Position numbers and translations under genes: made by a program. The notes below the pieces were generated by a model. That model saw nothing but the letters and a program-made list of their open reading frames with translations. It had not been told where the DNA came from and searched no databases. 64,000 nt of DNA from assembly GCA_039934295.1 (NCBI GenBank), contig JBDTMN010000005.1, positions 921 to 64,920 on the forward strand, given 5' to 3'. The DNA is from Candidatus Tayloriibacteriota bacterium (GTDB lineage: Bacteria > Patescibacteriota > Minisyncoccia > Phycocordibacterales > HO2-43-120). Shown here one piece after another: positions 576 through 56,597 of this stretch (position 1 is the stretch's first letter; the number at the start of each line of letters is the position of its first letter).

Positions 576-1778
576 CTACGCGGAGGAAATATTGTAAATA
601 GGGAGAAGGACGGAAGCGAGAAGAATTGCGACGCCCACTCCGAGTCCTACAATCATCACCGGCTCAATCAGGCCCACCATGGTGTCCACCGCAGTCGTAA
701 CTTCTCGACGGTAAAATTTGGCGAGATTTTCCAATATGCTCCCAAGCTCTCCGGACTCCTCTCCCACTTTCATCATTTGAATCAAGATACTCGGCATCTC
801 TTTGTATTTGCCCATTGAGACCGAAAGGGGGCTTCCACCTTTGACATCTTCATTCACCGCTAACAAAATCTTCTGGTAGTACTTGTTTCCCACCACGTCT
901 GCCGTAATCTCGAGCGCGTGGACGATTGGAATAGCGGACATGAGCATCGTGTTCAGGTTGTCGGCAATTCTTGAAAGGTAGAGCTTCTGATAAAGCGAGC
1001 CCAAATAGGGAACAGAAATTTTGAAACGGTCAAAAGCAAGCCCTCCTTCCTGAGTGCGAATGTATCGAATGAAGAAAAAGACGCCCACAATCAAAAAGAC
1101 GACAATAATAATGCCGTAATTGACGAAAAAATTGCTCAAGCCAATAACAATCTGGGTATAGATAGGAATCTGCTGACCCGACTCTACAATAATCGCGGTG
1201 ATTTTGGGAATGACGACCGTGAGCATCAAAATCATGACCGTCACAAAGGTAAAGATGACGAACCCCGGGTATATCAAAGCGCCTTTCACTTTTGAGGTTA
1301 CCTCGTAGGTGCGGTCGAGATAGTCGGCAAGGTAGCTGAATATCTGATTCAACTTGCCCGATTCCTCTCCGGAACGAATCATGCTGATGTAGAATGTGGA
1401 GAAGATTTTCGGGTGCTTTGCCATGGCGGCGGAGATAGAGCTCCCGCCCTGTATATCATCGGCAACCTTGCTCAATGTTTCCGACAAAAGATGGCTGTGC
1501 GCGTCCCCCGCGAGCAGTCTGAAGATGCGGAGCGCGGAGATTTGCGCTTCAAAAAGGGTCGCGAGCTGTCTTGAAAGGATGACGATGTCTTTGTTTGAAA
1601 CACGGTCAAGAAAAGCGATGTTTGTGCCCAAAGAAAATCCCTTTTCTTCCGGCTTGATGGAAGACACGGCAAGTCCCCGCCTCTGAAGCGAGCTTATTGC
1701 CACATCAATGTTGATGGCCTCGATCGCCCCGTCTCGCGGAACGCCTGTTGTATCGACTGATTTGTAGTTAAAAAGCAT
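576..1778 (-). CDS. pilC: type IV pilus assembly platform protein PilC (GspF family)
   Basis: ORF track 576..1826. Two GspF-type repeats, three TM segments, and a conserved ...GEESGKL... block in the second repeat. The start is moved to the internal ATG at 1776-1778 because the first 16 codons of the ORF translate the upstream repeat element. Confidence 0.85.
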   Translation of the reverse strand: MLFNYKSVDTTGVPRDGAIEAINIDVAISSLQRRGLAVSSIKPEEKGFSLGTNIAFLDRVSNKDIVILSRQLATLFEAQISALRIFRLLAGDAHSHLLSETLSKVADDIQGGSSISAAMAKHPKIFSTFYISMIRSGEESGKLNQIFSYLADYLDRTYEVTSKVKGALIYPGFVIFTFVTVMILMLTVVIPKITAIIVESGQQIPIYTQIVIGLSNFFVNYGIIIVVFLIVGVFFFIRYIRTQEGGLAFDRFKISVPYLGSLYQKLYLSRIADNLNTMLMSAIPIVHALEITADVVGNKYYQKILLAVNEDVKGGSPLSVSMGKYKEMPSILIQMMKVGEESGELGSILENLAKFYRREVTTAVDTMVGLIEPVMIVGLGVGVAILLASVLLPIYNISSA

Positions 1779-1780
1779 AA

Positions 1781-1876
1781 TTTCTATATCACTGAACTGA
1801 CTCGGACTAAGAACTCGGAACGACACGGAAAGGTTCCGATTCTGTTCCGTGCTCGAAGTCCGTGTTACTTCCGTGG
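1781..1876 (-). repeat. ~95-nt intercistronic repeat element, copy 1 (pilT stop to pilC start)
   Basis: Near-identical to 2942..3036, 3429..3525 and 7100..7195. Begins TCACTGAACTGACTCGGACTAAGAACTCGGAACGACACGGAAAGGTTCCG... on the plus strand. Confidence 0.8.
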
Positions 1877-2941
1877 TTATATCATTCTTTCAAGTGTCTT
1901 CGTGTTTAACGAATGCTGATAGGCGCTCTCGATGGTAATCTCGCCCGCTCGGACCAGATCCGCCAAGCTCCGGTTCATGTCTATCATTCCCAGCTCCAAG
2001 CCGGTTTCGATAACGGTATTCAGCTCGTGAGTCCTGTTTTCGCGAATGAGGTTCGAGACGGCGTTGTTCGCTATCAAAAGCTCGTAGGCAGGAATGAGGC
2101 CTCCAGAGATTCGCGGAATAAGTCTTTGGGAAAAAATGCCGGTCAAGCTCGATGCAAGCTGAATTCTAATCTGGCCCTGCTGTTCGGCAGGAAAAGAATC
2201 TATGATTCGGTTTATTGTTTGGGCGGCATTGTTGGTGTGAAGGGTAGAGAATACCAAATGCCCGGTTTCAGCGGCCGTAACGGCTGTAGCAATCGTTTCA
2301 ATCCCCCGCATCTCACCTATCAAAATCACATCCATGTCCTCCCTGAAGACGGAGAGAAGCGCGCTCTCAAAGTCTTTGGTGTCAAGCCTAACTTCCCTCT
2401 GGTCGATAATTGCTTTTTTCTGCTCGTAGATGTACTCGATGGGGTCTTCAATCGTGATGATGTGCTCCGCGCTCTCCTGATTGATCATCTCAATCATAGC
2501 GGCGAGAGTAGTGGACTTGCCGTGCCCCACCGGACCCACCACGAGAAAGAATCCCTGCTGTTTTCGGGTAAAATCTTCGAGTATCGGAGGAAGATTGAGC
2601 TCGGCTATGGTTTTTATTTTCCTTGGCACCAGCCGAAGAGCAAAGGCGATAGAACCTTGTTGGAAATACCCGTTTCCCCTAAAACGCCCGATATCTTTAT
2701 AGGAAAAAGAAAAATCAATCTCCTTGGTTTTCAAGAAAAGGTCTCGGTTTTCCGGAGTGAGAAGCTCGCGGACAAATCCGTCGGTATCCGCTTTGGTCAA
2801 GACCGATTTTTTGACGAGGGGAATCAGGAAGCTTGCCACGCGAATAGTCGGATGCCTGCCTTCGGAGAGGTGGATATCCGACGCCCCTTCCTTAATAACT
2901 ATGGATAATAAATCGTCTAATTCTGCTTTGAAGTCTGTCAT
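1877..2941 (-). CDS. pilT: twitching-motility ATPase PilT
   Basis: Walker A GPVGHGKSTT, Asp box, His box TLHTNNAAQTINRIID; length 354 aa typical of PilT. Confidence 0.9.
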   Translation of the reverse strand: MTDFKAELDDLLSIVIKEGASDIHLSEGRHPTIRVASFLIPLVKKSVLTKADTDGFVRELLTPENRDLFLKTKEIDFSFSYKDIGRFRGNGYFQQGSIAFALRLVPRKIKTIAELNLPPILEDFTRKQQGFFLVVGPVGHGKSTTLAAMIEMINQESAEHIITIEDPIEYIYEQKKAIIDQREVRLDTKDFESALLSVFREDMDVILIGEMRGIETIATAVTAAETGHLVFSTLHTNNAAQTINRIIDSFPAEQQGQIRIQLASSLTGIFSQRLIPRISGGLIPAYELLIANNAVSNLIRENRTHELNTVIETGLELGMIDMNRSLADLVRAGEITIESAYQHSLNTKTLERMI

Positions 2942-3036
2942 AATATTTCACTGAACTGACTCGGACTAAGAACTCGGAACGACACGGAAAGGTTCCGATT
3001 CTGTTCCGTGTTCGAAGTCCGTGTTACTTCCGTGGT
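2942..3036 (-). repeat. ~95-nt intercistronic repeat element, copy 2 (response-regulator stop to pilT start)
   Basis: Ends about 8 nt before the pilT ATG; same sequence family as copy 1. Confidence 0.8.
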
Positions 3037-3428
3037 TACTTTTTCTTTTCCTGAATAATTTTTTCGACTTCTGTTACCACTTCTGAAGGAATGGTGGTCG
3101 CTTTGACAATGTAGCCGTCGATGCCATATTTCTTCGCATTTTCGATGTCCTCCGATTGGCTCTGGTTGGAAAGAACGATAATGGCGGCGAGAGGTGCAAG
3201 ATGCAGTCTCCTCATCTCCTGCAGAAATTGAATGCCGTCAAGGTCAGGCATTACAATATCCACCGTAATCGCATCCGGCAAAAGTCCTTCTCGAAGTTTT
3301 CTTAAAGCATCATTGCCACCTGCCGATACAATCACGTTGAATCCTGCCTTCTTGAATTTTATGTCGTACATGCTTAAAAGAAATGCATCGTCGTCGATTA
3401 CTAAAATTGTTTTTTGTTTTGAGTCCAT
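3036..3428 (-). CDS. CheY-like response regulator receiver protein (PilH-like, receiver domain only)
   Basis: ILVIDDD...DIVMPDLDG with conserved phospho-acceptor Asp context; 130 aa, no output domain. Confidence 0.8.
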   Translation of the reverse strand: MDSKQKTILVIDDDAFLLSMYDIKFKKAGFNVIVSAGGNDALRKLREGLLPDAITVDIVMPDLDGIQFLQEMRRLHLAPLAAIIVLSNQSQSEDIENAKKYGIDGYIVKATTIPSEVVTEVEKIIQEKKK

Positions 3429-3525
3429 ATATATATTTCACTGAACTGACTCGGACTAAGAACTCGGAACGACACGGAAAGGTTCCGATTCTTCTGTGTT
3501 CAGAGTCCGTGTTACTTCCGCGTTT
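3429..3525 (-). repeat. ~95-nt intercistronic repeat element, copy 3 (pilB stop to response-regulator start)
   Basis: Same family; slightly diverged 3' part. Confidence 0.8.
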
Positions 3526-5239
3526 ATAACCTGTTCACTTCTTCAAACGGTATTTCTCTCTTGAATGCTTTAATAATAGCATCTTCTTTCATTGTAAGCA
3601 TCCCCTGCTCACGGCCGATTCTCTTGACTTCGCTTGCAGAAGGATTTTTCAGAATGACCGCCTCGAGCTCTTTACTCATTTGGAGGACTTCAACGACCGC
3701 CACTCGCCCGCTCGTGCCCTTCGGGTGTTCCGGTGTGGCGACTGCTTCGAATACATTGGCACCCATGGGAATTTCTTTCTTGAATATCTCCGGCAAGTCC
3801 TCAAATTCTTTCTCTATGAGAAGCTTGATACTCCCTTCGACAGGAATTTCTTTCCCAGCGCCTTCCGGCAACACTCGCGCCAATCTCTGGGCAATTGCGA
3901 GAATTAATGTCGGCGCAATCAAGAACGGGTCAACTCCAAAATCGAGCAGTCTGGGGATAACTCCTACGGCATTGTTGGTGTGAATGGTGGAGAGCACCAA
4001 GTGCCCAGTCAAGGCCGCCTGAACCGCAAGACCGGCCGTTTCTTTATCGCGAATCTCTCCCACCATGATGACATCTGGGTCCTGCCTCAAAGTCGTGCGA
4101 AGACCGGTGGCAAACGTGTAGCCGATTTCCGGAAGAACCTGCGACTGACTCATGCCCGGGATATTGTATTCCACAGGGTCCTCGAGGGAGAGCACGTTTT
4201 TGGTCTCTTTGTCCACCTCATTTAACATTGAGTAGAGTGTTGTAGACTTGCCCGAGCCCGTGGGGCCAGAAATTAAAATAAGGCCGTAGGGGCGCTTGAT
4301 GGCGTCAATGATGAGATTCAAATTGCGCGGAGTGAGCCCGAGCGCGTCCAGACGCTTCACTCCCTTTTCCGAATCGAGAATTCTCATCACCACCTTTTCT
4401 CCGTAATAAGAAGGGAAGGTCGAGACGCGAAAATCAATTTTCCTGTCCTCGATTTTCGCGCTGAAGCGACCGTCCTGCGGCTTCCTTTTTTCATCAAGCT
4501 TCATATTGGAAAGAATTTTGATTCTCGCCACCACCGCGGAATGGACTTTGACAGGTAGAACAATTGAGGTGTTGAGAATCCCGTCCACTCGGAAACGCAC
4601 ACGAATGTTTTCCGCCATATGCTCGATGTGAATGTCCGAAGCGTTGCCGGCAGTCGCGTAGTGGAGAATGGTGGCGACGATTTTGGTGACCGGAGCATCT
4701 TCGATAATGGTCGTCTTTCCTTTGGTCACTATAATATCTTCCTTCGGACTTTCCGGTTTTCCCTCCGTTGCAAGTTCTGTGTCAAGCTCAGTCAAAGCTT
4801 CCGTTACCTCTCCCGAGAGACCCTTGTACATTTCAATCACCCGGTCAAAATCTTGAGCCGAGACTAAAAAAAGTTTGAAAGGCAAGCTGACTTTTGAAGA
4901 GATGAAGGAAATGGCGTCCCGCGCTTCTATACTGTCTGGGTCAACGAGACCCACCTCCAAGACACCATCCGAAAGTCCTATCGGAACAAAACGATAGTAA
5001 GCGGCCGACTCCTCCGGCACGTATTTTAAAATCTCAAAAGGAATAACCAGATTTTTGAGGCTTCTTGACGGAATTCCCAAAGCTTCGCCCTTGTTCGTCA
5101 AAATGACCTCAGGGCTGACTCCCTTCGCAATCAAAATCTCCTCAATCGGTTTTCCTTTTTTTTCGGCCTGCTCCTTGATGGAAGAAATATCCTTCCGTTC
5201 AATGATTTTTTTTTCAGCCAAAACTTCTAATATACCCAT
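3524..5239 (-). CDS. pilB: type IV pilus assembly ATPase PilB (GspE family)
   Basis: N-terminal GSPII domain. Walker A SGPTGSGKSTTLYS, Asp/His boxes, 571 aa. Confidence 0.9.
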   Translation of the reverse strand: MGILEVLAEKKIIERKDISSIKEQAEKKGKPIEEILIAKGVSPEVILTNKGEALGIPSRSLKNLVIPFEILKYVPEESAAYYRFVPIGLSDGVLEVGLVDPDSIEARDAISFISSKVSLPFKLFLVSAQDFDRVIEMYKGLSGEVTEALTELDTELATEGKPESPKEDIIVTKGKTTIIEDAPVTKIVATILHYATAGNASDIHIEHMAENIRVRFRVDGILNTSIVLPVKVHSAVVARIKILSNMKLDEKRKPQDGRFSAKIEDRKIDFRVSTFPSYYGEKVVMRILDSEKGVKRLDALGLTPRNLNLIIDAIKRPYGLILISGPTGSGKSTTLYSMLNEVDKETKNVLSLEDPVEYNIPGMSQSQVLPEIGYTFATGLRTTLRQDPDVIMVGEIRDKETAGLAVQAALTGHLVLSTIHTNNAVGVIPRLLDFGVDPFLIAPTLILAIAQRLARVLPEGAGKEIPVEGSIKLLIEKEFEDLPEIFKKEIPMGANVFEAVATPEHPKGTSGRVAVVEVLQMSKELEAVILKNPSASEVKRIGREQGMLTMKEDAIIKAFKREIPFEEVNRL

Positions 5240-5346
5240 AGTGTATGACCTATAACTAATAACTGAATAACCGATAACAGAGTAAAATCATCGCGTTCTT
5301 TTCTGGTCATTCAGTTATTCAGTTATTCAGTTATGAGTTATCTGAC

Positions 5347-5688
5347 TCACCTCGTTTGTGTCGACGTCGATATCGGTTGGGAAAGGTTTCCAACTCCTAT
5401 TGGCGCGAAAGGATTACTTCTGCCTTGAGGCTCTGCGGTCACTTTTCGAGAAAAATCCTGGAGAGATAGAAAGGTCTTGGTTCGAAAAATTGTGTCGCTC
5501 ATCGTAATCGAGTTTACGGTCTGGAGCTCCGCAATAATATCCTTGCCCACAAGCGTCTGGGGCTGTCCCGATTGCTCTAAAGCATCCGAAGTGGAAGGAG
5601 TTCCCTTGTTCAAATACTTATAGCCGATAAAAACCAGAAGCAGGGCTATGAGGACTCCTATAATGATGGTTATTTTTTTAGTTGACAT
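5347..5688 (-). CDS. hypothetical small protein with an N-terminal TM anchor, inside the pilus operon
   Basis: 113-aa ORF with a hydrophobic N-terminus (IIIGVLIALLLVFIGY); no recognisable motif. Confidence 0.45.
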   Translation of the reverse strand: MSTKKITIIIGVLIALLLVFIGYKYLNKGTPSTSDALEQSGQPQTLVGKDIIAELQTVNSITMSDTIFRTKTFLSLQDFSRKVTAEPQGRSNPFAPIGVGNLSQPISTSTQTR

Positions 5689-5744
5689 CCGGTTAGAAGT
5701 TTATGCCTTAATAATTTTCTCTCATTTCTTGCTTTATTTCAATA

Positions 5745-5850
5745 TCCTGGATCCCTCCCCACTTTTGGAACAAACGATGTTCAAAAAATCAAAAGTGGGG
5801 AGGGATGACAAAATAAGAATTTTGTCACTTTTCACTTTCAACTTTTACTT
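5745..5850. repeat. two-hairpin repeat module (TGGATCCC-stem/loop-GGGATGAC-GACAAAATAAGAATTTTGTC-CACTTTTCACTTTCAACTTTT)
   Basis: Related copies at 40033..40105 and 41596..41668, and a partly related one at 26906..26975. The first stem differs between copies through compensatory changes. Confidence 0.7.
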
Positions 5851-6417
5851 AAGCCAGTACGTGCTCGCATTTACGGTAAAATCATACAGGGTGGAATCTT
5901 TCTCGACTGGCTTCAAGATGATGCTCGTCACATCAAGAATACGCAGACTTCTCTCTAAATCCGTAAGAAAATTGGAAAACTTATCGTATGAAGTCGTGAG
6001 AGTGAAAGACAGGCTCGCCTTGTCAAAATCGGTTTGCGCCTGACCCGTCGTACCCGTGGTGTCTGCAACCCCAGCAACTTTAGCGTCCTGCGGATTGGCC
6101 AATTTAACCGTTTTCACAAGAATACCGTGATTGTCAGCTATGCCGTTTAAATCCGATACCATTCGGACTGTGTCTACGTTGTCCGGCATGAGTTTCCCGA
6201 GTTTTTCCAGATTATCTTTCCCTATCGCCTCCTTCTTTTTCACCAGCCCATCACGGAGCGTTGTCAACTGTTTTGCTTTTTCGAGCGCATCCTGGTACAC
6301 GAGCACTTCTTTTTTCAAATCCAGATTTTTGGCGTACTGCCCGCGAATAAATCCGAAAAACAATCCAGCGGAGGCTAGTAAAAGGATAATTGGAGTTATG
6401 AGGCGGTTTGAGTACAT
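5845..6417 (-). CDS. PilO-like type IV pilus inner-membrane component
   Basis: N-terminal TM followed by a coiled-coil, 190 aa, in the pilM-N-O context; the family call rests on position and architecture. Confidence 0.55.
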   Translation of the reverse strand: MYSNRLITPIILLLASAGLFFGFIRGQYAKNLDLKKEVLVYQDALEKAKQLTTLRDGLVKKKEAIGKDNLEKLGKLMPDNVDTVRMVSDLNGIADNHGILVKTVKLANPQDAKVAGVADTTGTTGQAQTDFDKASLSFTLTTSYDKFSNFLTDLERSLRILDVTSIILKPVEKDSTLYDFTVNASTYWLK

Positions 6418-6421
6418 ATTA

Positions 6422-7099
6422 TTATCGTAAATTTGTTGTTGTCGCGGAAGAGGTCGTTGCTGTCCGCGTGGTGGAAGCTGTCGGGGAGACGATTGGGGAG
6501 ACTACCGGTGTTACTCCGGCCGAGCTAATCTTATACAGAAGCAAAGAAGGGTCAACGCTCATCTTAACTTTAAAGGAGACATTCCGGTTCTCGTCGAGGG
6601 CTAAGTCATAAAAAGAAGGGTTCTTGAACGCCTTTTGTTTTCTGAATATGTCTGACTGGAGAGTGACCGCATTAAAGCCTCTCCCTATGCCTTCCATGGA
6701 CACGTCGAAAGAACCCAATTTTTCATCGCCAAATTGAAATGTCTTGAACTGAACTGTCTGAAGGGTGAGACTTTGAAGGGCCTGAAAAAGCGAGGAAATT
6801 CCCGTATGACTTCCCAGAATTTTTTCAGCGATTTGAATTCTTTTGTCATCGCGCGCCAAATCGGCGATCAAAGCAGATTGAATGTTCTTTTGCTCCACGG
6901 CAAGCTTCTCGTCCATAACTTTAATATTATTTTTGAGATAGTAGTTGTACCCAAAGATTCCGATTGACCCAAGAAAGACTATGACGAAGAGAATTATCGA
7001 GATAAGCGAAAATAAGCCGACACTACTGCCACGGCTTCCTCCCCCGCTGTCCACAACAGGTTTTTTCGGGATAAATGATGCTTGTCCTCTTGGTTCCAT
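6422..7099 (-). CDS. PilN-like type IV pilus inner-membrane component
   Basis: Single TM after a short cytoplasmic N-terminus, then a periplasmic domain; immediately downstream of pilM. Confidence 0.55.
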   Translation of the reverse strand: MEPRGQASFIPKKPVVDSGGGSRGSSVGLFSLISIILFVIVFLGSIGIFGYNYYLKNNIKVMDEKLAVEQKNIQSALIADLARDDKRIQIAEKILGSHTGISSLFQALQSLTLQTVQFKTFQFGDEKLGSFDVSMEGIGRGFNAVTLQSDIFRKQKAFKNPSFYDLALDENRNVSFKVKMSVDPSLLLYKISSAGVTPVVSPIVSPTASTTRTATTSSATTTNLR

Positions 7100-7195
7100 A
7101 TATATTTCACTGAACTGACTCGGACTAAGAACTCGGAACGACGCTGAAGGGTTCCGATTCAGTTCCGTGTTCAGAGTCCTTGTTACTTCCGTGTT
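7100..7195 (-). repeat. ~95-nt intercistronic repeat element, copy 4 (pilM stop to pilN-like start)
   Basis: Same family as 1781..1876, with substitutions in the central hairpin region. Confidence 0.8.
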
Positions 7196-8327
7196 AATCT
7201 ACTTCCTGCAACTTTCGAAGCGCCAATCCAACCGCAACGGCAAACTCGGGACCAGCGGATTTCAAAATGTTCGCGAGAAACGCAGGTGCTTCCACTTTTG
7301 AAAAAGGGTCCGCCGAAATTACCTGTACTTGAAAAGCCTGCTCGGCCATTTTGAGAAATCCCTGCAACCCCGACCCTCCTCCCGTAAGAACGACCTTGCC
7401 AACATTTTTATTATACTTTTTCTGATAGCTTAATAATAATCTATTCGACTCGGAAAATATATAGTCAAGTGTTGATAACATTATGCCCTGCATATCCTTG
7501 TTTCCGCCACCAAGGTCGAGCCCCTTTGTTCGTTTCAGATTTTCGGCCTCTTCCACGCTTACCGACATCGCCCTGGCAATGCCCAATGTGAGGTCTTGGG
7601 AACCCCGGTCAATAATATGTGATGTCTTCAAAATGCCACGCTCGACAACATAGAGCTTGGTCGAACTTGCTCCCATGTCAAAAATCATAACCGGACTAAC
7701 CTCGGCATCGAGCACGGCTCGGATGGTGCTGAAAATCTCAATTTCAAAAAAGCTCGAATCAAGTTGCGAAAGACGAACGATTTCTCGCATGTCATTCAAA
7801 GCATCGTTGTGGATAACTACAAGAAGGACCTGGGTTTTCTCAAGTTTTTTTTGAAGCACCGGAGCGTTGTTTCCCTTGTCTCCCTGAATCTCTTCTTCCT
7901 CATTCCAGATTTTGTCCTCTCTCGGCAATATCCACCAATCGAGCGTAACTTCGGAGATAGAAACGGGAATATATTTTCTGGCCTCCAAGGGAATCATATC
8001 CGCTATCTGCTTTTGATCCGTAGTCGGCACCTCAATCAAACTAATTAAGCTCGAAGACATCGAAATAGAAATGCCGCACTTTTTTGTCGTCGCATTCGCC
8101 TCCTTTAATATATCGTTCAGAGCTTCAGCAACTTTCCCAGGCGGAAGGTGAGTCGCCCGTCCCACTTCGAGCCCGGCATAGGGACCAAGGGCAAGAGCGC
8201 CGTATGTTTCCAAAACGGCTTTTCCTTTCTCTTTTCGAAGCTGGACGAGCTTGATTGAGGAAGGTCCGATGTCCACCCCGAGGACGCTTCGGTCATTTTT
8301 TTTAAATAATTTCGATAAAAATGACAT
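7194..8327 (-). CDS. pilM: type IV pilus assembly protein PilM (actin-like ATPase fold)
   Basis: LGVDIGPSSIKLV... and MIFDMGASSTKLYVV blocks typical of PilM/FtsA-like proteins; 377 aa. Confidence 0.85.
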   Translation of the reverse strand: MSFLSKLFKKNDRSVLGVDIGPSSIKLVQLRKEKGKAVLETYGALALGPYAGLEVGRATHLPPGKVAEALNDILKEANATTKKCGISISMSSSLISLIEVPTTDQKQIADMIPLEARKYIPVSISEVTLDWWILPREDKIWNEEEEIQGDKGNNAPVLQKKLEKTQVLLVVIHNDALNDMREIVRLSQLDSSFFEIEIFSTIRAVLDAEVSPVMIFDMGASSTKLYVVERGILKTSHIIDRGSQDLTLGIARAMSVSVEEAENLKRTKGLDLGGGNKDMQGIMLSTLDYIFSESNRLLLSYQKKYNKNVGKVVLTGGGSGLQGFLKMAEQAFQVQVISADPFSKVEAPAFLANILKSAGPEFAVAVGLALRKLQEVD

Positions 8328-8475
8328 GAGTATTGGTAGGTGCTAGGTTTAAGCTGTTAGGTGTAAGTATGAACAAAAAAGAAAGTGAGAATCTTTATCA
8401 AATTTTCTTAAGCTAACACCTTACACCTCGCACCTCAAACCTGCTGACTATACATGATATGATTATAGCACTATT

Positions 8476-9144
8476 TTGGACTATATGAAAAAAATAAGCG
8501 AGTTTTTGCTTGACTTTCTTTTTCCTGCTTCAAAAAAAGCGGCAAGAATCGAGAAAATGACCGCCAGCGATTTTCGAAAGGAAATCGGGGTGGGAGACGC
8601 TATGGGAGCGCGCGGAGATAAGGATATTCACCCGCTTTTTGAATATCGACATCCCCTTGTTCGCGAGGCAATCTGGCAAATAAAATATAAAGGAAACAGA
8701 AAAATAACGAAACTCCTTTCGGAAATTCTCTACGAGGAAATCGTTGCCGAAATCGAAGATCGCGCCCTCTTTGAAAACTTTAAAAACCCGCTTTTAATTC
8801 CGGTGCCAACAAGCAAAAAGCGACTCCAAAAAAGGGGATTCAATCAGATGGAACTTTTGGGCGGGGAGCTCAAGAGTCTCGACGAAAATAGAACATTTGA
8901 ATTTAGTCCTGGCATTTTGATTAAAATAAAAGACACTCTGCCACAGACGCTTCTTAAAGATCGTCGTCTCCGCCTCGGAAATCTCGTCGGCTGTTTCGCC
9001 GTAACAGACGCGCAAAAAATTAAAAATAGAAACATCATTTTGATTGACGATGTGTTGACGACCGGCGCAACTCTCGCCGAAGCAAAACGCGCGCTTATAA
9101 ATGCAGGGGCGAGGAGAGTGATTGCGTTTACACTGGCACATTAG
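8476..9144 (+). CDS. comFC: ComF family protein (phosphoribosyltransferase domain, ComFC-like)
   Basis: C-terminal PRTase motif IILIDDVLTTGATL; 222 aa. Confidence 0.75.
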   Translation: MDYMKKISEFLLDFLFPASKKAARIEKMTASDFRKEIGVGDAMGARGDKDIHPLFEYRHPLVREAIWQIKYKGNRKITKLLSEILYEEIVAEIEDRALFENFKNPLLIPVPTSKKRLQKRGFNQMELLGGELKSLDENRTFEFSPGILIKIKDTLPQTLLKDRRLRLGNLVGCFAVTDAQKIKNRNIILIDDVLTTGATLAEAKRALINAGARRVIAFTLAH

Positions 9145-15963: not shown

Positions 15964-18900
15964 TTAAATCCTAAAACTCTCTTTGATAATCCCCTTCTTG
16001 TTAGTCGACACATCCTTGCTCATTATCACAGTATAACTACCATCTGCGTTTTTCTTTTGAATTTCAACGCGAAATTCACCAGGTGGCACCAGACAATAGT
16101 ATCTTCCATACGCATCAGATACGACCGATTTTATTACGGCAAATTTATCCGGAGTATATACCTTTATGATTGCGTACGAGAGAGGTTGACCCGTCCGCGA
16201 ATCAATCACTGTGCCATACTGACGACCCCTAATTCCAAACATATACATCACACACAGAATGATGTAAGCGAATGAGAGAATGAGGTTTAGAGTGGAGAAG
16301 TTGAAAATATTTTCGACAATAGTAAACACCAAACCTGCTCCAAAAAGTATTTCACGTACCAGAGCAAATATTCGCTCATTTTTAGAGTGAAAAATCATCA
16401 GATCTTTGTCATGCTTTGCGAATTCGTTCCAATCAAACCCAACAGGATCTAAAGGAATATTTTTCTTCACAATTTCACCTGAAGAGATGTCAATCATTCC
16501 TCCAAAATACAAATCACCGTAGATTTCATCAAAACCTTTTCCCGACATTCGTTCCGAAGGAAATACACAGTGGGTCTTTTGAGCTTTCAACGTATACTTT
16601 CCGGGAGATAAGAGAAAACCGTATCTCCCGTCAAGGTCGGTGATTGACTCCGCTACTACGTTGCCCGAGATATCGAGTGCCGAAACAATCGCGGGATCAA
16701 GTGGCTGTTTGGTAACACTGTCGTATACCGTCCCCCATGGAGTTATTCTCTTTTTTATTCCAAAAAATATGAGGAGCAATCCCCAAAATCTTCTTAGTTG
16801 CAAAAGTAGTTCCGCAAGTGAATTGAACGACAGAGAACTTGAAACGACAGCGAGAAAAGGCACAATGAGACCGAGTGCTTTGACAACCGTTGCCTCTTTC
16901 GAATTTACAATAGTTTTGGATATACTTGTAGCGTCATCTATGATCCTTCCGACAACTGAAGTAAGACCTGAGACAATCGATACGAAAGACGTATTGCTTC
17001 CTGAAGTCGATATGCCATTGTTACCAGACGTGTTTTTTGTGTTGTCAATATTGTCAACATTATTGTCCACACTAGAATCGAAAGGTCCTGGGTTATTGTC
17101 GTTGGGATTAGTCTGCGTGTCGTTCATATTTGAATCAAGAAGAGGGTCATTCACCGGTAATTTATTTGGCGGTGGCGTCGGAATAATCGGTGGTCTAACT
17201 ACACGAGTAGTATAGTTCTTCTGGAATTCGAGTGGTATAGGTGTGCGGCGCGAAGACGAGCCTCCGGAAGAACCGCTCCCAGTAGAGCTAGGTGGCACAA
17301 CTGGAGGAACCGGACAACTTTCTGTCGCAAACATCACATCCTCTCCATAGGAAAGTCCCACGGTACTTCCGGCATATGCCGCCATGTGATAGGTGGTATC
17401 GCAAATTAAATCAGTAATCGGGGCAGTGAAAGTTCCGGCCGAGAAATCTCCCGATTCAGTTGTGGTTGAGGTGTAGGAAGCAGTAAGACCATATACGATA
17501 CCTCTCACATCTGGAATGACATCTCCTGTTGCCGTAATCGTTCCATTACCCGTAGCGGTAGTTTGGGTAATAGATGAAACTGCTTGAGTTGTAACGGTAG
17601 GGGCGAAAACGGCAATAGTGGTGGTCGAGAGTATGGCTCCAGTTGACGTGCCAGTAGAATTAACAGCATACGCTCGGAAGTAGTAGAGGGTGTTCGGAGT
17701 AAGACCGGTGAGATTTTCGGAGAATGATGCAGTTCCGATTTGAGCGCCCAAGGTTGAGGTGGCAATTACCGTCGAGAGGTCTGCTGACGTGCCATATGCA
17801 AAACCGCTTTCAGTTGCATCCTCTCCGCCGGTATCGGTGATGACTCCGTTTAAGGTCGCAGTAGTTTGAGTGACGGAAGAAGCAGCTTGGGTAGTGAGGA
17901 AGGAACCAGAAGGAGCGAGCGTGGCAGTCGAAAGAATGGAACCATACGAAGTTCCAGAAGGGTTTATGGCATACGCGCGAAAGTAGTAGGTGGTGTTCTG
18001 TTGTAGACCGGTTATATTTTGAAGGAATGAGGCTGTGCCAGTTTGAGAGCCCAAGGTTGAGGTGGCAATCACCGTCGAGAGGTCTGCTGACGTGCCATAT
18101 GCAAAACCGCTTTCAGTTGCATCGCCACCACTACCAGTAGCGGTTATTGTTCCGTTAAAGGTTATTGAAGATATAGTTATTGCAGTGGGGGGAGAAGTCG
18201 TAACATGCATCAAATCAACAAAAGTTACAGCCCCTAAAGAATCAGTGTAATTTAGTACGTCTGAAGCTGTGGCCGTACTCGTGAATGCTCCATTCAAAAA
18301 TGTGATACCTAAATTGGATATACTATTAGCCACAGCGTGACTTGAAGCAGTACCGGTAAATGTAAGAGTTGCCGTAGTACCAGCGCCGTTTACCGTCATG
18401 AGAGGAGTGAGACCGGCCGGAGCATTGCTGAGAGAGTAATCAGTATTTAAAGTGAGCGTTGAACCAGCATGAGTAAATAGGTCATTTGTAAGAGTAGCTA
18501 TGCGACTTCCAGAGACGATACCGTCATCAGCGCCGGTTTCGGTGAAAGAACCGGAGTATGAGGTAATTTTAGGTTCCGCAAATTTGTATACAATAGGTGG
18601 GTGATTGCTGTTGATACCAGCATCATTAAATATTACAAATGGAGTGTCATTGTGATCTATAGCCAAAGCAATAAAGGTTACGGCTCCAACGGAAAAACCT
18701 GAAGTGCCGACAGTGTCCCACGAGGAACCACTCCATTTTTTTACCACAATTTTGTCAGCAGGAATTGTGGTAGAATCAGCATATGCTATATATGGAGTAC
18801 CTAATGAATCCGTAGCGATATTCACACTAGATGCTACTCCATCAGAAAAACCGCGTGTCCCGATAAGATTCCAGGTTGCTCCATTATATTTATATACGGT

Positions 18901-19818
18901 AGCTTTTCCGCTATAAGGCGCTGGGAGATCAGAGTACCCTACATATGGCAATATACCCGTAGAATCAAGAGCTAATATTTTTTGAGCCTGTACACCGAAA
19001 CCTGAAATACCAGTACTTCCAATGGGGACATATTCCCAATTTAGCCCATTTAATTTTTTTACTACAGCTCTATTTCCTCCACCCACACCGGTATCTTCAT
19101 ATGCAAGATAGGGAACATTAGAAGAATTTATTTTAATTGCTATTTTGAATGCTGAATCAACCGAAATTGTAAATGGAGCCGTAAAAGGACTAGCACCACC
19201 GACATACAGCCAAGCAGAACCGTTCCATTTTCGAACTACAGTCTTATAGTTAGATGCGTCAACAAGATCACTATATGCTATATATACAAGACCTGTTGAA
19301 TCAATGGCGATAGATGGCTCACTTTGTAGATACCACTGACTTAAGCAAGCGGTGCCTTCATATACCCAATTTACTCCATCGAATTTTTTAACGCTTATGC
19401 CAAATTGTCCTTGAGTAGGACAATGTTGATCTCTAAACGCAACATATGGAACGCCAGAAGGACTGAGAGCCAGACGTGAGTAAAGAGCGCCAACGCCACC
19501 ATTGATATCTGCACTGCCCACTAAAGTCCACGACGAACCATTCCATTTTTTTAAATAACTTTTGCCGGTATCATAATATACGACATATGGTATATTTTGG
19601 GAATCAAAGACTATATCCTCCCAGGCTCCTCCATGTGGAGGAGTAAATTCTGATATTGAACCACTACCAACGATAGTCCATTGAGTAACGGCTAGTGCAT
19701 TCTGGGCAATAGAAAAACTTACAATAACTGTAAAAAGCGCAAGGGCATATTTAAAGTTTTTACTATTTCGTATTTTTGACATAAAACAATTAATGGTAAC
19801 TACCTGTATTATTGCCAT
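15964..19818 (-). CDS. giant secreted surface protein (beta-propeller-like repeats, FN3-like domains, low-complexity linker, multi-TM region, two carboxypeptidase-regulatory-like domains)
   Basis: ORF track 15964..19830 with a TTG start; the ATG MAIIQ... lies at 19816-19818 and MSKIRN... is another possible start. A signal peptide is present. Repeated ~50-aa units contain PYVAY...KW/KYNGSSW. Three or more ...TYYFRAYA...G.S.G modules are present. The C-terminus has GTVYDS...DGRYGF and GTVIDS...YGRYY blocks. Confidence 0.7.
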   Translation of the reverse strand: MAIIQVVTINCFMSKIRNSKNFKYALALFTVIVSFSIAQNALAVTQWTIVGSGSISEFTPPHGGAWEDIVFDSQNIPYVVYYDTGKSYLKKWNGSSWTLVGSADINGGVGALYSRLALSPSGVPYVAFRDQHCPTQGQFGISVKKFDGVNWVYEGTACLSQWYLQSEPSIAIDSTGLVYIAYSDLVDASNYKTVVRKWNGSAWLYVGGASPFTAPFTISVDSAFKIAIKINSSNVPYLAYEDTGVGGGNRAVVKKLNGLNWEYVPIGSTGISGFGVQAQKILALDSTGILPYVGYSDLPAPYSGKATVYKYNGATWNLIGTRGFSDGVASSVNIATDSLGTPYIAYADSTTIPADKIVVKKWSGSSWDTVGTSGFSVGAVTFIALAIDHNDTPFVIFNDAGINSNHPPIVYKFAEPKITSYSGSFTETGADDGIVSGSRIATLTNDLFTHAGSTLTLNTDYSLSNAPAGLTPLMTVNGAGTTATLTFTGTASSHAVANSISNLGITFLNGAFTSTATASDVLNYTDSLGAVTFVDLMHVTTSPPTAITISSITFNGTITATGSGGDATESGFAYGTSADLSTVIATSTLGSQTGTASFLQNITGLQQNTTYYFRAYAINPSGTSYGSILSTATLAPSGSFLTTQAASSVTQTTATLNGVITDTGGEDATESGFAYGTSADLSTVIATSTLGAQIGTASFSENLTGLTPNTLYYFRAYAVNSTGTSTGAILSTTTIAVFAPTVTTQAVSSITQTTATGNGTITATGDVIPDVRGIVYGLTASYTSTTTESGDFSAGTFTAPITDLICDTTYHMAAYAGSTVGLSYGEDVMFATESCPVPPVVPPSSTGSGSSGGSSSRRTPIPLEFQKNYTTRVVRPPIIPTPPPNKLPVNDPLLDSNMNDTQTNPNDNNPGPFDSSVDNNVDNIDNTKNTSGNNGISTSGSNTSFVSIVSGLTSVVGRIIDDATSISKTIVNSKEATVVKALGLIVPFLAVVSSSLSFNSLAELLLQLRRFWGLLLIFFGIKKRITPWGTVYDSVTKQPLDPAIVSALDISGNVVAESITDLDGRYGFLLSPGKYTLKAQKTHCVFPSERMSGKGFDEIYGDLYFGGMIDISSGEIVKKNIPLDPVGFDWNEFAKHDKDLMIFHSKNERIFALVREILFGAGLVFTIVENIFNFSTLNLILSFAYIILCVMYMFGIRGRQYGTVIDSRTGQPLSYAIIKVYTPDKFAVIKSVVSDAYGRYYCLVPPGEFRVEIQKKNADGSYTVIMSKDVSTNKKGIIKESFRI

Positions 19819-20357
19819 AGAATACCACAAGCTCGCAACTCACGCACACTACTCTAATAACAAAATTTAAACTAGGATCAAACTCATGAGGTGCTATTTT
19901 CTGGAATTTCAAGAATATGCAGATTGCCTCTATAAATTTTTTCTCAAGTGTCACACAAGACCGCCCCCACCAAAGCGCACTAGGCGCTAGGAAACTAGGC
20001 AGTAGGCTCTAGCAGAAATGCTAATGCCTAAAGCCTAATGAATTTCGGTGGGGAAGGAAGGAGAGGATGACGCCAGGTCAGCATGTCCCTCTGATATCCT
20101 ATGCTGGCGGCGAAGCAAAACCAAAAATTTCCTTTCCATTTTTTGTCGGCCCCCCACACTCACCCGCCGAGGAAAATAAGAAAGGTAAGGAAAATTTTTG
20201 GGTTTTGCATTGCGACCGTAGGGGCAGACGAGGCGCGCAGATTAATAGCAATCATCAGGATTTAGTTCGAAATACATTCGAACTTCGTTCAGTAGATACC
20301 GCCCAATTTTGAAATTGAAAATTGGGACGGGAGATGGAAGAAAATAATTTTTATATT

Positions 20358-23000
20358 CTAGATATCCGACAAGATAAACGTCCTCGTTATCGGTCCGAAG
20401 AATCCTACGGGAGGCGTGATGCCATGAGCTAACTGGAACTTGGAGAGAGCGGAGCGGGTAAGAGCTCCGAAGTAGGTGGTCTCATTGCCTGGAGAACCAA
20501 AGCCCGAAAGAGCAAGAGTGAATCCTTTGGAATTTAAGTATTGCTGAAGGAGTTTTACATCGCTTCCCACTGATCCCGAACCAAGATTACGGGTGAAGGA
20601 AAGCGGGGTGAGAACAGGCGGGAGTCCTATTCCCGGAGTAATTTCCACAACTGGAGCGATTCCCGACGTATTTGGACTACACATGTATCCTGAAGGATTC
20701 TCCGGAAACGGAATCAGGGTATATCCTTCGGCGCAGACTGGAAGAGCAGATGATGGTGAAGGTAATTGAGAAATGAAGTTCGCACTGCGACCGCCACTTG
20801 AGCTTCTCCTTCTTGAGGGGGTGGGAGTGGGGGAAGGTTCTTCTGTAGGACAAGCAGTTGTAGAAAATGAGATGATAGAGCCATAAGCGGTGGCTACAGG
20901 ATTTGTAGCATAAGCTCTCACGAAATATTCTGTATCACAGGTGAGGCCGGTCATGGTGCTAGTCCAGGGGCCACCGATGGCGAAACCATCTGTGGTTTTA
21001 GTGGAAAGAGCAGTGGTGGGATTTATTACTGTATCCCAGACGAGACCACTAACTGTCACTGTTGCTCCACCATTTGAAGATATAGTACCGCCACCAACTG
21101 CAGTGGTTTGAGTGATGGAAGTGACTGGGATTGTAGTGGTTACAGTGGGGACAACCACGCTACTAACCGTAACTGTAATTGGTGAAGATGTTGTGGTATT
21201 TCCAACATTGTCTCTTGCAACTGCAGTCAAAACATGGTCTCCGTCTGAAACAGAAGTCGCGTCCCAAATGATTCCATATGTAGAAGTAGTGTCTTCTATA
21301 TCCAGATTTATACTATCTAGCTTGAATTGAACACCCACAACACCAAAATCATCAGAAGCATCGGCCGTAATGGAGACAGATGCACCAGAAACAACTGCTA
21401 GATCAAGTGGAGCTGTGATTGAAATACTCGGCGCCGTTGTATCAATCACAATCGCCTTGTTGGCGGCTAAGTTGGTAGCTGGAATGAAGCTCGACATTGC
21501 ATTACCAGAGAGGTCGGCAATAGTGCCAGAGATTGAGTTGGTGTCTAAGTCGAGAGATGTGTCTCCAGCTTGTACGGTGTAATTACAAGTGCCGGTAGTA
21601 GAACCAGAGACCGTGAAGGTACATGTCCGGTCAGTGGCGCCAGTTTCGAGAGTGACTGTGACGCTACCAGTGGAAGTAACCGTCTCGGAGAAAGTGACGT
21701 CAATATCGATCACCTCTCCTGTCTTGTAGGTACCGTTTGCTTTGTCAGAGGAAACGTTGGTGATGGTGGGAATAGTTGGATCAATGGTTGAAACTGAAGC
21801 TTTGTTAGGGCCGTTTGCGGCATCCCAATATCCTAAATATGGATTATTATTTGAATCTAAATCTAAAGATGTGAAAGTACCTATAGATGATGTAAAACCG
21901 GCACTACCCACAGCTTCCCAAGATGAACCGTTATATTTCATGACAGTTGTCCTTAAACCATTTGCTCCATCGGAAAATCCTACATAAGGTACATCTAAAG
22001 AATCGAAGGCGAGAGATGGCCACTCTGATCCAGTGGCTCCTCCATTAAAACCAGCGCTACCAACGTTACTCCACGAACCACTGGTAAATTTCATGACAGT
22101 AATTCTATTGCTGGTTCCAACATCTTTATATGCTACATATGGAATGTTAGTGGAATCTAACTTGATTGAAGTGCTAAATACCTGTCCAGCCGAAAATGCA
22201 GGACTACCTACGACTACCCAAGATGAGCCATTATATTTCATGACTGTAGCTTTATTACCCCTGCCTGAAAAATGGTCACTGAAGGCAACATACGGTACAC
22301 CAGTAGAATCAAGAGCAAGAGAAACTTGGTCACCTTGCCCATCTGAAAAACCATTTCCAGATGAAGCACCTACTGTGGACCAGGAAGTACCATTAAATTT
22401 CTCAAGGGCAACCTTACCGCCGTCTGGAAAATAATCCATATGCGCTACATATATATTATTTGAAGAATCAATGGCAATAGAGGGGTAGTCCGCTTGTTGG
22501 CTGGTGGCAGCCACAGAGCCCACAGTTACCCACGATGAACCGTCAAATTTTTTAACCACAGCTTTATAGCTATTTCCACCAGTTCCGCCATCTTGCATTG
22601 CAACGTATGGGTTACCGCTAGAATCAAATGCCATAGTAGGAGTATATGAATCATTTCCTGAAATCCCAGTGCTACCCGAAGGCAGGGTTACCCAAGATGA
22701 ACCATTATATTTCAAAACCATTATTTTATTACTATTTCCGCTATCCCTATATGCAACATAAGGAGTATTAGTAGAGTTTAAAACAAGGTTAAGATAACTG
22801 GGTGTACCAGCTGAGAAGCCGAGACTCCCCACATTTGTCCATCCTATCGCTAGAACGTTCTGAACGTTTTGAACGTAGACCCCCGCAACTACCAAAAAAG
22901 CAAATGTCGGAAACAAAACAAAACTGTACCTGCGTTTTTTTAGCATATTTCGCATTTTGGACACAAAACAATTCATGGTAACTACCTGTATTATTGCCAT
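20358..23000 (-). CDS. giant secreted surface protein, paralog 2 (beta-propeller-like repeats, Ig/FN3-like domains, C-terminal peptidoglycan-binding domain)
   Basis: Same conserved N-terminus MAIIQVVTMNCF... Repeated PYVAY.D...K(Y/F)NGSSW units. The C-terminus VKLLQQYLNSKGF...GALTRSALSKFQLAHGITPPVGFFGPITR matches a PG_binding_1-type module. Confidence 0.7.
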   Translation of the reverse strand: MAIIQVVTMNCFVSKMRNMLKKRRYSFVLFPTFAFLVVAGVYVQNVQNVLAIGWTNVGSLGFSAGTPSYLNLVLNSTNTPYVAYRDSGNSNKIMVLKYNGSSWVTLPSGSTGISGNDSYTPTMAFDSSGNPYVAMQDGGTGGNSYKAVVKKFDGSSWVTVGSVAATSQQADYPSIAIDSSNNIYVAHMDYFPDGGKVALEKFNGTSWSTVGASSGNGFSDGQGDQVSLALDSTGVPYVAFSDHFSGRGNKATVMKYNGSSWVVVGSPAFSAGQVFSTSIKLDSTNIPYVAYKDVGTSNRITVMKFTSGSWSNVGSAGFNGGATGSEWPSLAFDSLDVPYVGFSDGANGLRTTVMKYNGSSWEAVGSAGFTSSIGTFTSLDLDSNNNPYLGYWDAANGPNKASVSTIDPTIPTITNVSSDKANGTYKTGEVIDIDVTFSETVTSTGSVTVTLETGATDRTCTFTVSGSTTGTCNYTVQAGDTSLDLDTNSISGTIADLSGNAMSSFIPATNLAANKAIVIDTTAPSISITAPLDLAVVSGASVSITADASDDFGVVGVQFKLDSINLDIEDTTSTYGIIWDATSVSDGDHVLTAVARDNVGNTTTSSPITVTVSSVVVPTVTTTIPVTSITQTTAVGGGTISSNGGATVTVSGLVWDTVINPTTALSTKTTDGFAIGGPWTSTMTGLTCDTEYFVRAYATNPVATAYGSIISFSTTACPTEEPSPTPTPSRRRSSSGGRSANFISQLPSPSSALPVCAEGYTLIPFPENPSGYMCSPNTSGIAPVVEITPGIGLPPVLTPLSFTRNLGSGSVGSDVKLLQQYLNSKGFTLALSGFGSPGNETTYFGALTRSALSKFQLAHGITPPVGFFGPITRTFILSDI

Positions 23001-23186
23001 AGAATACCACAAGCTAGCAACTCACGCACACTACTCTAATAAAGTTTGGCCTCGCCTAATACCCCGCCGAGGTACTCCAAGGGGACAGCTTGCTCTCGGG
23101 ATAGGACGAGACAAACCTTTATTTCGCAGTTGTATTTGCAATGAGTAGTCTGGTATTATATAAATCTATAAGCTATTTAAAATGCC

Positions 23187-30246: not shown

Positions 30247-30343
30247 CCACCACGTAGCCAGGTACTTTTCAATCTCGCAGACTCGATAATGAAAAGTCTT
30301 TCGAGTCCCTCACAGAAGCCAAGCAGTTGGCTTCTTCTTGCGG

Positions 30344-30416
30344 TGCGCGCGGAGGGACTCGAACCCCCGACCGATCGAGTATAAGTCGACTGCTCTACCA
30401 ACTGAGCTACGCGCGC
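30344..30416 (-). tRNA. tRNA-Ile (anticodon UAU)
   Basis: Hand-folded cloverleaf: acceptor GCGCGCG/CGCGCGC, D-stem GCTC/GAGC, anticodon loop CTTATAC, T-loop TTCGAGT, discriminator A. No encoded CCA. Confidence 0.65.
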
Positions 30417-34245: not shown

Positions 34246-34650
34246 GGGGATGATCGGTCTAGACAGCTGATTTACTCTCAAATATGCAAAGTAGAGCACC
34301 GTTACCTCTTAAATCTGACGGAAATTCTAAGCGCAAAAAACTTAGTTACAAGAGCAAAATTAGCCGTTTCTCCCTATTTTAGGGCAAACGACTTTGCTTT
34401 CGCTTACGCTTTAGCCTAAGCGACGCTTCATATCCCAACTTCCGATAGGGATACGTAAGTGTAATATATTCGGAATGGGATAGATGGTCGTCTCGCTCTC
34501 TATCCGAAACTAAGAGACTCGATCACTACATATTTTGTTTGCTTTAAGCGCAGTGATTTAAATCTGCTTCGGCAGGAAAAAACAGACTACACTTTGTAGA
34601 AATATTAGAGAGCGTCAGTTGCACCCGAGTTCGATTCTCGGCATCTCCAC
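34246..34650 (+). ncRNA. ssrA: tmRNA (ssrA), tag peptide ANDFAFAYALA
   Basis: 5' GGGGATG pairs with 3' CATCTCC+A. T-arm GAGTTCGATTCTC. Internal reading frame GCAAACGACTTTGCTTTCGCTTACGCTTTAGCCTAA. Directly follows smpB. Confidence 0.8.
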
Positions 34651-34669
34651 AAAAATAACGAGCTCTCTT

Positions 34670-35907: not shown

Positions 35908-36009
35908 TATACGAATAAATACCTAATATACAAATGGTTACGAATAAGAAATTAGATTTAGATTATTAGTATTCATTGGTATATCGCATTCATTAGTATA
36001 TTTGTATGT

Positions 36010-40032: not shown

Positions 40033-40105
40033 TTCCTGGATCCCTCGATTAATCTGGATCCCCGTCTTCACGGGGATGACGAAATAAGAATTTCGTCACT
40101 TCCCT
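40033..40105. repeat. two-hairpin repeat module, copy 2
   Basis: CTGGATCCCCGTCTTCACGGGGATGACGAAATAAGAATTTCGTCACTT. Confidence 0.7.
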
Positions 40106-41595: not shown

Positions 41596-41668
41596 ACTGG
41601 ATCCCCGCTAAGCGGGGATGACAGAATGAGAATTCTGACACTTTACACTTTTTACTTTCAACTAAATT
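41596..41668. repeat. two-hairpin repeat module, copy 3
   Basis: CTGGATCCCCGCTAAGCGGGGATGACAGAATGAGAATTCTGACACTTTACACTTTTTACTTTCAACT. Confidence 0.7.

Positions 41669-54194: not shown

Positions 54195-54560
<366 letters not shown>

Positions 54561-55838: not shown

Positions 55839-55870
<32 letters not shown>

Positions 55871-56554: not shown

Positions 56555-56597
<43 letters not shown>

Follow-up and report, generated by a model that had tools for sequence, protein, structure and literature searches.

A dispersed family of palindromic repeats, probably selfish, in the operon gaps and the 23S rRNA gene of a Taylorbacteria genome

A stretch of 64,000 nucleotides (nt) from a Candidatus Tayloriibacteriota bacterium (contig JBDTMN010000005.1, positions 921 to 64,920), hereafter called the window, carries near its start a type IV pilus operon in which several of the gaps between genes are occupied by an element of about 95 nt, and the same element recurs in diverged form inside the 23S ribosomal RNA (rRNA) gene. 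An earlier note on this DNA had described four near-identical copies which fill stop-to-start gaps of the pilus operon, lie on the transcribed strand and end about 8 nt before the next ATG. Reading, repeat finding and alignment have reproduced the coordinates, the strand and the filling of the gaps, with six copies in total, four near-identical and two diverged, all six on the minus (transcribed) strand. The pilus copies begin 0-2 nt past the upstream stop codon and end 7-11 nt short of the downstream ATG, the largest of these distances being that of copy 1. The operon and the copies are located as follows.

576-8327, minus strand: host operon, in the order pilM, pilN-like gene, pilO, an unassigned open reading frame (ORF), pilB, response regulator (a receiver-domain protein), pilT and pilC, assigned with Pfam
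8462-8491, minus strand: best candidate for a sigma-70-like promoter, upstream of pilM, TTTTCA-18-TATAAT with TG, a consensus match only
1779-1876, minus strand: copy 1, in the gap from the pilT stop to the pilC start; 32-bp hairpin, dG -39.2, z -5.0
2942-3035, minus strand: copy 2, in the gap from the response-regulator stop to the pilT start; 98.9% identity to copy 1
3429-3523, minus strand: copy 3, in the gap from the pilB stop to the response-regulator start; dG -30.0
7100-7193, minus strand: copy 4, in the gap from the pilM stop to the pilN-like start; dG -30.9
54836-54955, minus strand: diverged 23S copy with an extra GC branch hairpin, replacing the terminal loop at position ~1764 of the large subunit (LSU) rRNA model
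55141-55262, minus strand: diverged 23S copy with an extra GC branch hairpin, replacing the terminal loop at LSU model ~1574-1585

A profile search of both strands of the window with nhmmer detected no seventh copy, and a degenerate pattern of the 3' arm, equivalent to 20 bases, matches exactly six sites in the window and none in 100 shuffles. The PilT protein is 100% identical to one from a metagenome-assembled genome (MAG) named 'Candidatus Taylorbacteria bacterium', which identifies the window as part of a genome of the candidate phyla radiation (CPR; Patescibacteria).

Comparison with related genomes points to insertion as the origin of the pilus copies. Three relatives, with PilT at 77-82% identity, have the same pilus gene order and do not carry the element, their homologous gaps measuring 6-80 nt. 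In the window and in these relatives the N- and C-termini of PilM, PilN, PilB, the response regulator, PilT and PilC fall at homologous positions. The absence of the element from relatives, together with the unchanged ends of the flanking proteins, therefore indicates clean insertion between a native stop and a native start, and the copies fill the whole gap because the native gaps are tiny. Identity among the pilus copies is 90-99%, and between them and every other copy it is 67-70%, which argues for a recent local burst. A short-read contig carrying this pilT gene ends at the copy on either side of it, as is expected of a repeat. No target-site duplication was detected at the flanks of about 50 copies, which argues against a classical MITE (a miniature transposable element with inverted repeats) and for a mode of insertion like that of repetitive extragenic palindromic (REP) sequences or IS200.

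In the 23S rRNA gene, Infernal (cmscan) aligns 155 nt in place of a 12-nt loop at LSU model ~1574-1585 and 120 nt in place of a 2-nt loop at ~1764. We take these sites to be the tips of helix 59 (H59, domain III) and helix 63 (H63, domain IV), respectively, from an E. coli count anchored on m6A1618. The earlier note was right about these two copies and their minus orientation, and its suggestion that rRNA tolerates the element is borne out by the replacement of two terminal loops; its placement of them in domain II does not hold, since the Infernal alignment puts them elsewhere. At the same 23S tips, relatives have short native loops or other inserts. The gene itself has been stretched to about 10 kb (~47100-57189, minus strand) and also contains a group I intron (54311-54588), four LAGLIDADG ORFs (53456-53977, 51272-51877, 50399-50998 and 48151-48633) and hairpin inserts of other families at 54615-54699, 55617-55745 and 56825-56906. 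A scan of the gene at the Rfam gathering threshold recovers only LSU model positions 15-2284.

The element is not confined to this genome. When species-representative genomes were scanned with the 3'-arm pattern, 35 loci were retrieved, of which about 31 are real, mostly in four groundwater Elusimicrobia MAGs (JACRDL01, PEVQ01, JBBAAR01 and DHFT01), with about 25 pattern matches in JACRDL01 alone. A profile search of these loci raised the count to about 40 copies, and a metagenome scan added 24 further loci. Four pattern matches, in a Terriglobia (L011), a Gammaproteobacteria (L023) and a UASB14 (L029) sequence and in L060, were discarded as chance, having no element around them. Several of the metagenome loci have 47-53% GC and carry the variant nearest to the rRNA copies of the window; these contigs are Taylorbacteria-like, and in one of them (L065) the methionine aminopeptidase has its best named relatives in Taylorbacteria. 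The Elusimicrobia loci encode cysteine and methionine metabolism, GH57, TldD/PmbA and similar genes, which are generally missing from CPR genomes, and the loci therefore do not represent CPR DNA binned wrongly. An alignment of thirty full-length copies, drawn from both phyla, spans 103 columns with a mean column identity of 76% and shows a common architecture, so that one homologous family is common to two phyla, Taylorbacteria/CPR and groundwater Elusimicrobia. The element was not matched in viral contigs, phage records or plasmid records.

Among 58 non-redundant copies, essentially all of the intergenic ones lie between co-directional genes; one copy occupies a convergent gap, and divergent gaps hold no copy. 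This enrichment is only mild (p=0.014), as 88% of all gaps in the copy-bearing loci are co-directional. Orientation has been assigned from a strand-asymmetric hexamer score combined with gene context, the strand given by nhmmer being unreliable for the near-palindromic Elusimicrobia copies. On this basis 47 copies are co-oriented with the genes and 3 are inverted (94%, p=4e-11), so that the randomly oriented copies which the earlier note had named as evidence against its proposal were not what was observed. The host operons are conserved housekeeping units, among them S10/spc ribosomal protein operons, rpsF|efp|rpsR, efp-accBC and grpE-dnaK-dnaJ, and at one locus (L043) copies stand at three consecutive positions, rpsF|efp, efp|rpsR and after rpsR. 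The earlier view of a dispersed, structured, MITE-like module which is not merely a pilus regulator is supported.

Two loci show the element in closer association with coding sequence. In L014 (CAYVZN010000036.1; also L062), on a contig binned as Saccharibacteria, two copies (5546-5645 and 5877-5995) lie inside a 976-amino-acid (aa) ORF in one orientation and one reading frame, have no stops and encode …TELYTEQTLN…SSVSVP…SQFS. A phage tail-protein family matches the ORF weakly, and the segment between the copies may resemble a tail-fibre chaperone domain. In L002 (JACRDL010000045.1, 6243-6712), an ORF of 124 aa for a GxxExxY / PD-(D/E)XK (PDDEXK_3) nuclease sits exactly in the apical loop of one copy, and at the orthologous site in JBBAAR01 (L001), where the flanks have 87% nucleotide identity, a plain hairpin is found. 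This nuclease is the only ORF found between the arms of the element and is not a transposase; a tblastn search with the GxxExxY protein did not find a second nested case.

Each copy folds as one nested imperfect hairpin of about 32 bp, with energies of -30 to -39 kcal/mol; compared with shuffled sequences, these have z-scores of -2.9 to -5.3. Units of ~11 nt, ACACGGAACAG, are repeated in tandem along the 5' arm, their complements make up the 3' arm, and copies differ in how many units they have; the end of the 3' arm reads …GTCAGTTC(A/C/T)GTG. Some copies, including both rRNA copies, carry the extra GC-rich branch hairpin, at one fixed place in the 5' arm. The arms form inverted repeats over about 40 nt, as the terminal inverted repeats of a MITE would, so that of the features by which the earlier note would have recognised a MITE or insertion sequence end, the inverted repeats are present and the target-site duplication is not. 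The upstream stop codon is TAA, TAG or TGA and stands 0-6 nt before the first unit or within it; in cases where a simple ORF caller had put the upstream gene far off, inspection placed the end of the gene at the 5' arm or within it. One of two common 3' tails reaching the ATG, GTAKTWT or TGTTCGCGGAGCGAACA, is present in many Elusimicrobia copies next to unrelated genes; the latter tail is a mini-hairpin whose loop carries GGAG some 7 nt ahead of the start codon.

The complementarity of the arms was examined on the 30-copy alignment by counting pairs in an explicit two-tier nested structure. Standard pairs are formed by 86.7% of the cells; displacing the 3' partners by 1-3 columns lowers this to 18-41%. 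Neither the compensatory changes nor the covariation score rises above column shuffles in this alignment, A-C mismatches are about as frequent as G-U wobbles at variable pairs, and stability is no greater on the sense than on the antisense strand (mean -37.6 vs -39.4 kcal/mol). For these reasons the complementarity is read as inherited from a palindromic source and then lost independently in each copy, and maintenance of an RNA structure is not evidenced. The earlier note had proposed the covariation analysis itself and had stated that lack of covariation would count against its proposal; for a selected RNA structure, this is the result obtained. An RNAalifold consensus of the 30 copies was discarded as meaningless because the tandem units pair in several registers.

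These observations bear directly on the regulatory topology first suggested for the element. It had been compared to an attenuator or riboswitch leader with overlapping, mutually exclusive stems, and a related possibility is that it acts as a sponge for a GGA-binding protein such as CsrA. Such readings could appeal to the repeated CACGGAA units, which can pair in more than one register, and to the 4-8 ACA-GGA motifs of the 5' arm, which resemble CsrA sites. The CACGGAA/TTCCGTG stems taken for alternatives are, however, the repeated unit pairing out of register, and in all four pilus copies the minimum free energy (MFE) and centroid structures coincide as a single nested hairpin. No promoter- or terminator-like site was found inside the window copies on the transcribed strand, no Rfam family matches the element at E<=1, and to this is added the absence of covariation. 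The element also lies between cistrons, in rRNA and in an ORF, not in 5' leaders, and its GGA motifs are base-paired in the fold. The riboswitch, attenuator and sponge readings are thus largely refuted and very improbable, and the element is neither a riboswitch or attenuator nor a regulator specific to the pilus genes.

Other known classes of structured element were also considered and dropped. An intrinsic terminator requires a GC-rich stem and a U-tract, and the window copies are followed by AAAUAU… with no U-tract; a U-rich tail comes after a few of the Elusimicrobia copies. An integron attC site is contradicted by the lack of an RYYYAAC / GTTRRRY core, by ends that read CACGGAA… and …GTTCAGTG, and by the location of the element in conserved operons and rRNA. 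Sequence ends, host context, size and the lack of an Rfam match led us to set aside a retron, a group I/II intron and an omega-RNA.

The element probably constitutes a new family of non-autonomous palindromic dispersed repeat, apparently selfish, of the kind represented by REP/REPIN sequences, MITEs, Rickettsia palindromic elements (RPE) and the intervening sequences (IVSs) of 23S rRNA. In this reading the arms of tandem ~11-nt units would let the whole element fold into one long imperfect stem-loop, and copies would arise by insertion and persist where a self-contained hairpin does little harm, that is, in stop-start gaps, in exposed terminal loops of 23S rRNA and occasionally in frame within an ORF. 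The element would be co-transcribed with its host operon or rRNA. Insertion may be strand-specific, on hairpin DNA and without target duplication, as with Y1/HUH enzymes of the IS200/RAYT type (RAYT, REP-associated tyrosine transposase), and a strand-specific mechanism on single-stranded DNA would explain the 94% co-orientation because host operons are usually co-oriented with replication. On the plus strand the window has a weakly negative GC skew, which is compatible with such a mechanism and too weak to separate replication-linked from transcription-linked orientation. Once transcribed, the ~32-bp stem would be a putative RNase III substrate, at which the operon mRNA may be cut between cistrons and the 23S rRNA fragmented or trimmed; this susceptibility is possible by analogy with Correia elements and 23S IVSs. 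A tblastn search with an E. coli RNase III query gave no rnc match in the window and the retrieved locus fragments, a negative that carries no weight.

An enzyme of the Y1 kind is encoded in the window itself.

62084-62743, minus strand: Y1_Tnp / RAYT-like gene, 219 aa; Pfam 38 bits, above the cut-off

The protein scores 39.7 bits against the NCBIfam model REP_Tyr_transpos, under that model's cut-off of 80. Its gene is flanked by CCAAGGGTWACCCTTGG palindromes at 62052 and 62771, with more at 62813, 63840 and 63965, and together they form a REP-RAYT-like unit of this CPR genome, one that is separate from the element described here. A second RAYT-like gene, 35% identical to that of the window, is located in L014 (4243-4974), 50 nt downstream of the 976-aa ORF, with a flanking palindrome of its own, GTTTAACATYSRATGTTAAAC. 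From sequence, these genomes do appear to run REP-RAYT-type systems. In the genome fragments inspected, neither gene is flanked by the CACGGAAC element family.

Several observations weigh against the selfish-repeat reading. No transposase has been tied to the family, and both RAYT-like genes have other palindromes at their flanks. The comparison yielded no strictly empty site at which intergenic DNA could be aligned, and the flanks of the ~50 copies show no conserved target motif. Sense and inverted copies occur within one operon (L025 and L020), as at grpE|dnaK and dnaK|dnaJ in L025, and the orientation bias could reflect selection instead of mechanism. The conserved GGAG mini-hairpin tail, at Shine-Dalgarno distance in many Elusimicrobia copies, hints at a role in translation. 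Finally, unrelated hairpins of similar size at orthologous gaps and rRNA tips could mean that a hairpin as such is selected at the site.

This last point arises from the other hairpins of the window and of its relatives. Most window gaps of at least 80 nt hold long hairpins of other families whose arms are likewise short tandem repeats, a motif of 6-8 nt and its complement (AACTGAAT, AGCTAAT, AGGTGTT, ATACGAAT). They span stop to start in co-directional gaps, including rplJ|rplL, and several unrelated families coexist in one small genome. The pilT|pilC gap contains three unrelated hairpin families in three Taylorbacteria-like genomes and measures 6 nt in a fourth, and the rpsN|rpsH gap has the element family in one Elusimicrobia species and an equal-sized AGTGAA/TTCACT hairpin in another, the flanking genes being 82% identical.

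5240-5346, 8345-8442, 35890-36009, 45752-45916, 60881-60996 and 61660-61790: intergenic hairpins of other families in the window, -26 to -57 kcal/mol
L007 ~6200-6320 and L027 ~2390-2500: unrelated hairpins of similar size at orthologous operon gaps of related species

The 23S rRNA tips were compared in relatives with conserved rplJ-rplL-…-23S synteny: L067 carries a CAATTGACA family at H59 and H63, with four copies in its 23S gene; L070 has its H63 insert in common with L067 and a different H59 insert; L075 has a AAAGTTTATAAAG family at these tips; and L072/L074 have no H63 insert. The insertion sites are thus reused, with hairpin content that is lineage-specific. These sites may attract, repeatedly, any selfish hairpin that the genome happens to carry, as hot spots would, or they may be places where a hairpin is selected.

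The second alternative can be stated as a selected intercistronic punctuation, in which RNase III would cut the hairpin, part the cistrons, leave a protective 3' stem and free the downstream start, the insert in rRNA being an excised IVS; the sequence families of hairpins would turn over and the hairpin at the site would be kept. The occupation of most of the larger window gaps from stop to start by a hairpin of some family is in line with it, and so are the unrelated hairpins of similar size at pilT|pilC in three species, at rpsN|rpsH in two Elusimicrobia species and at H59/H63 in several Taylorbacteria, since structure kept despite complete turnover of sequence is what selection on structure predicts. 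Small, compact genomes would moreover be expected to shed useless DNA, and both Correia elements and 23S IVSs are cut by RNase III (PMC10969869, PMC4990558). Against this, some relatives have gaps of 6-12 nt or native short rRNA loops at the same sites, so that the hairpin is dispensable there, and within the family neither covariation nor a preference for G-U over A-C at variable pairs is seen. Palindromes can, in addition, stay complementary through template-switch repair without selection. Punctuation of this kind is accordingly regarded as possible and rather doubtful.

A role in translation control fares less well. Here the stem would mask the landing region of the downstream ribosome and would be opened by a ribosome terminating 0-6 nt before it, which would couple the cistrons, with some variants bringing their own Shine-Dalgarno sequence. 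The geometry is constant, the stop abutting the 5' foot and the 3' foot standing 5-20 nt before the ATG, and the conserved TGTTCGCGGAGCGAACA-ATG tail of many Elusimicrobia copies, with its GGAG at unrelated genes, is in line with it. The same geometry nevertheless follows trivially from insertion into native gaps of 6-60 nt, the start codon lies outside the stem, the Taylorbacteria copies have no Shine-Dalgarno-like tail, and coupling makes no sense for the copies in rRNA and within an ORF. This explanation is considered improbable. A wider proposal holds that hairpins form a general functional punctuation layer in ultrasmall groundwater bacteria, with fast-evolving families in each genome at operon junctions and at H59/H63 that would be cut by a double-strand RNase to give monocistronic mRNAs and trimmed or fragmented rRNA, and that the sharing between Taylorbacteria and Elusimicrobia would result from direct DNA exchange, for example between episymbiont and host; as a whole it is judged unlikely.

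If the reading as a selfish palindromic repeat is correct, one small family would behave like REP/REPIN between genes, like an IVS in 23S rRNA and like RPE inside an ORF, which would join three literatures that usually stand apart. The family would also have crossed two phyla of uncultured groundwater bacteria and might serve as a marker of physical association or gene flow with CPR bacteria, a matter of interest because the hosts of the latter are mostly unknown. The long rRNA genes and broken assemblies of these lineages would be partly due to such repeats, which would constitute a warning to annotators. The presence of different hairpin families at the same junctions and tips bears on whether compact genomes keep hairpins for RNA processing or fail to purge them.

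Other features of the window deserve a brief mention. A 29-nt motif with a small hairpin, GGGATGACAAAATAAGAATTTTGTCACTT, is present in three copies (5802-5830, 40073-40101 and 41615-41643) and adjoins GC-rich stems (CCCCACTTTTG…CAAAAGTGGGG at 5751-5806), constituting another small repeat family. Two very large ORFs on the minus strand, of 1288 aa (15964-19830) and 884 aa (20358-23012), are built from internal repeats of about 150 nt and have upstream segments of 97 nt (19764-19860 and 22946-23042) that are 95% identical; their appearance is that of paralogous surface proteins rich in repeats, the leaders having been duplicated. A tRNA-Ile gene with a TAT anticodon (30342-30416, minus strand) and a tmRNA gene (34246-34652, plus strand; tag peptide AKNLVTRAKLAVSPYFRANDFAFAYALA) contain no copy of the element.

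Among known systems, the REP/REPIN-RAYT system shares many similarities with the family: short extragenic palindromic repeats occur in many copies per genome as hairpins of ~90-110 nt made of two inverted halves, without target-site duplication and in transcribed intergenic DNA; orthologous sites persist between species; and RAYT-like genes are present, in the window and in L014. The two differ in that the RAYT-like genes found here are flanked by other palindromes, so that a single-copy RAYT accompanied by the same repeat was not seen in the fragments inspected, and in that the arms of the element are tandem 11-mers of variable number. REP sequences have a conserved GTAG or CGTC tetranucleotide at one end (PMC3733652); in the element, GTAG stands past the 3' foot in only ~8 of ~45 copies. 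REPINs have been described as vertically inherited (bioRxiv 10.1101/2022.05.22.493013), in contrast to a family that is common to two phyla.

The 23S IVSs are extended stem-loops which replace a small terminal loop of a 23S helix, some of them bearing an ORF (PMC4990558). Replacement of terminal loops and sporadic occurrence among relatives are shared by the element, of which one mRNA-borne copy holds a small ORF in its loop like the ORF-bearing IVSs (PMC4990558). Known IVS sites are in helices 9, 25 and 45, while the element is at H59 and H63, and a family located mostly between protein genes is not a described property of IVSs in the literature consulted. RPE are palindromic repeats of ~100-150 bp found in frame in protein genes and in non-coding regions (PMC10969869). 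The two in-frame copies in the L014 ORF provide a match in behaviour only, with no sequence homology; the hosts differ, and the element is mostly intercistronic, only one host ORF having been seen. RNase III cleaves the stem of the Neisseria Correia elements, and the enterobacterial ERIC sequences influence the stability of mRNA depending on their orientation (PMC10969869). Both resemble the element as co-transcribed, MITE-like hairpins inside operons. Correia elements differ in having defined terminal inverted repeats, a TA duplication and both orientations, compared to no duplication and 94% orientation with transcription in the element. In the early mRNA of phage T7, intercistronic RNase III sites are located between consecutive cistrons. 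These are likewise hairpins between consecutive cistrons of one transcript, a functional analogy only, and they differ from the element in being neither dispersed repeats nor present in rRNA.

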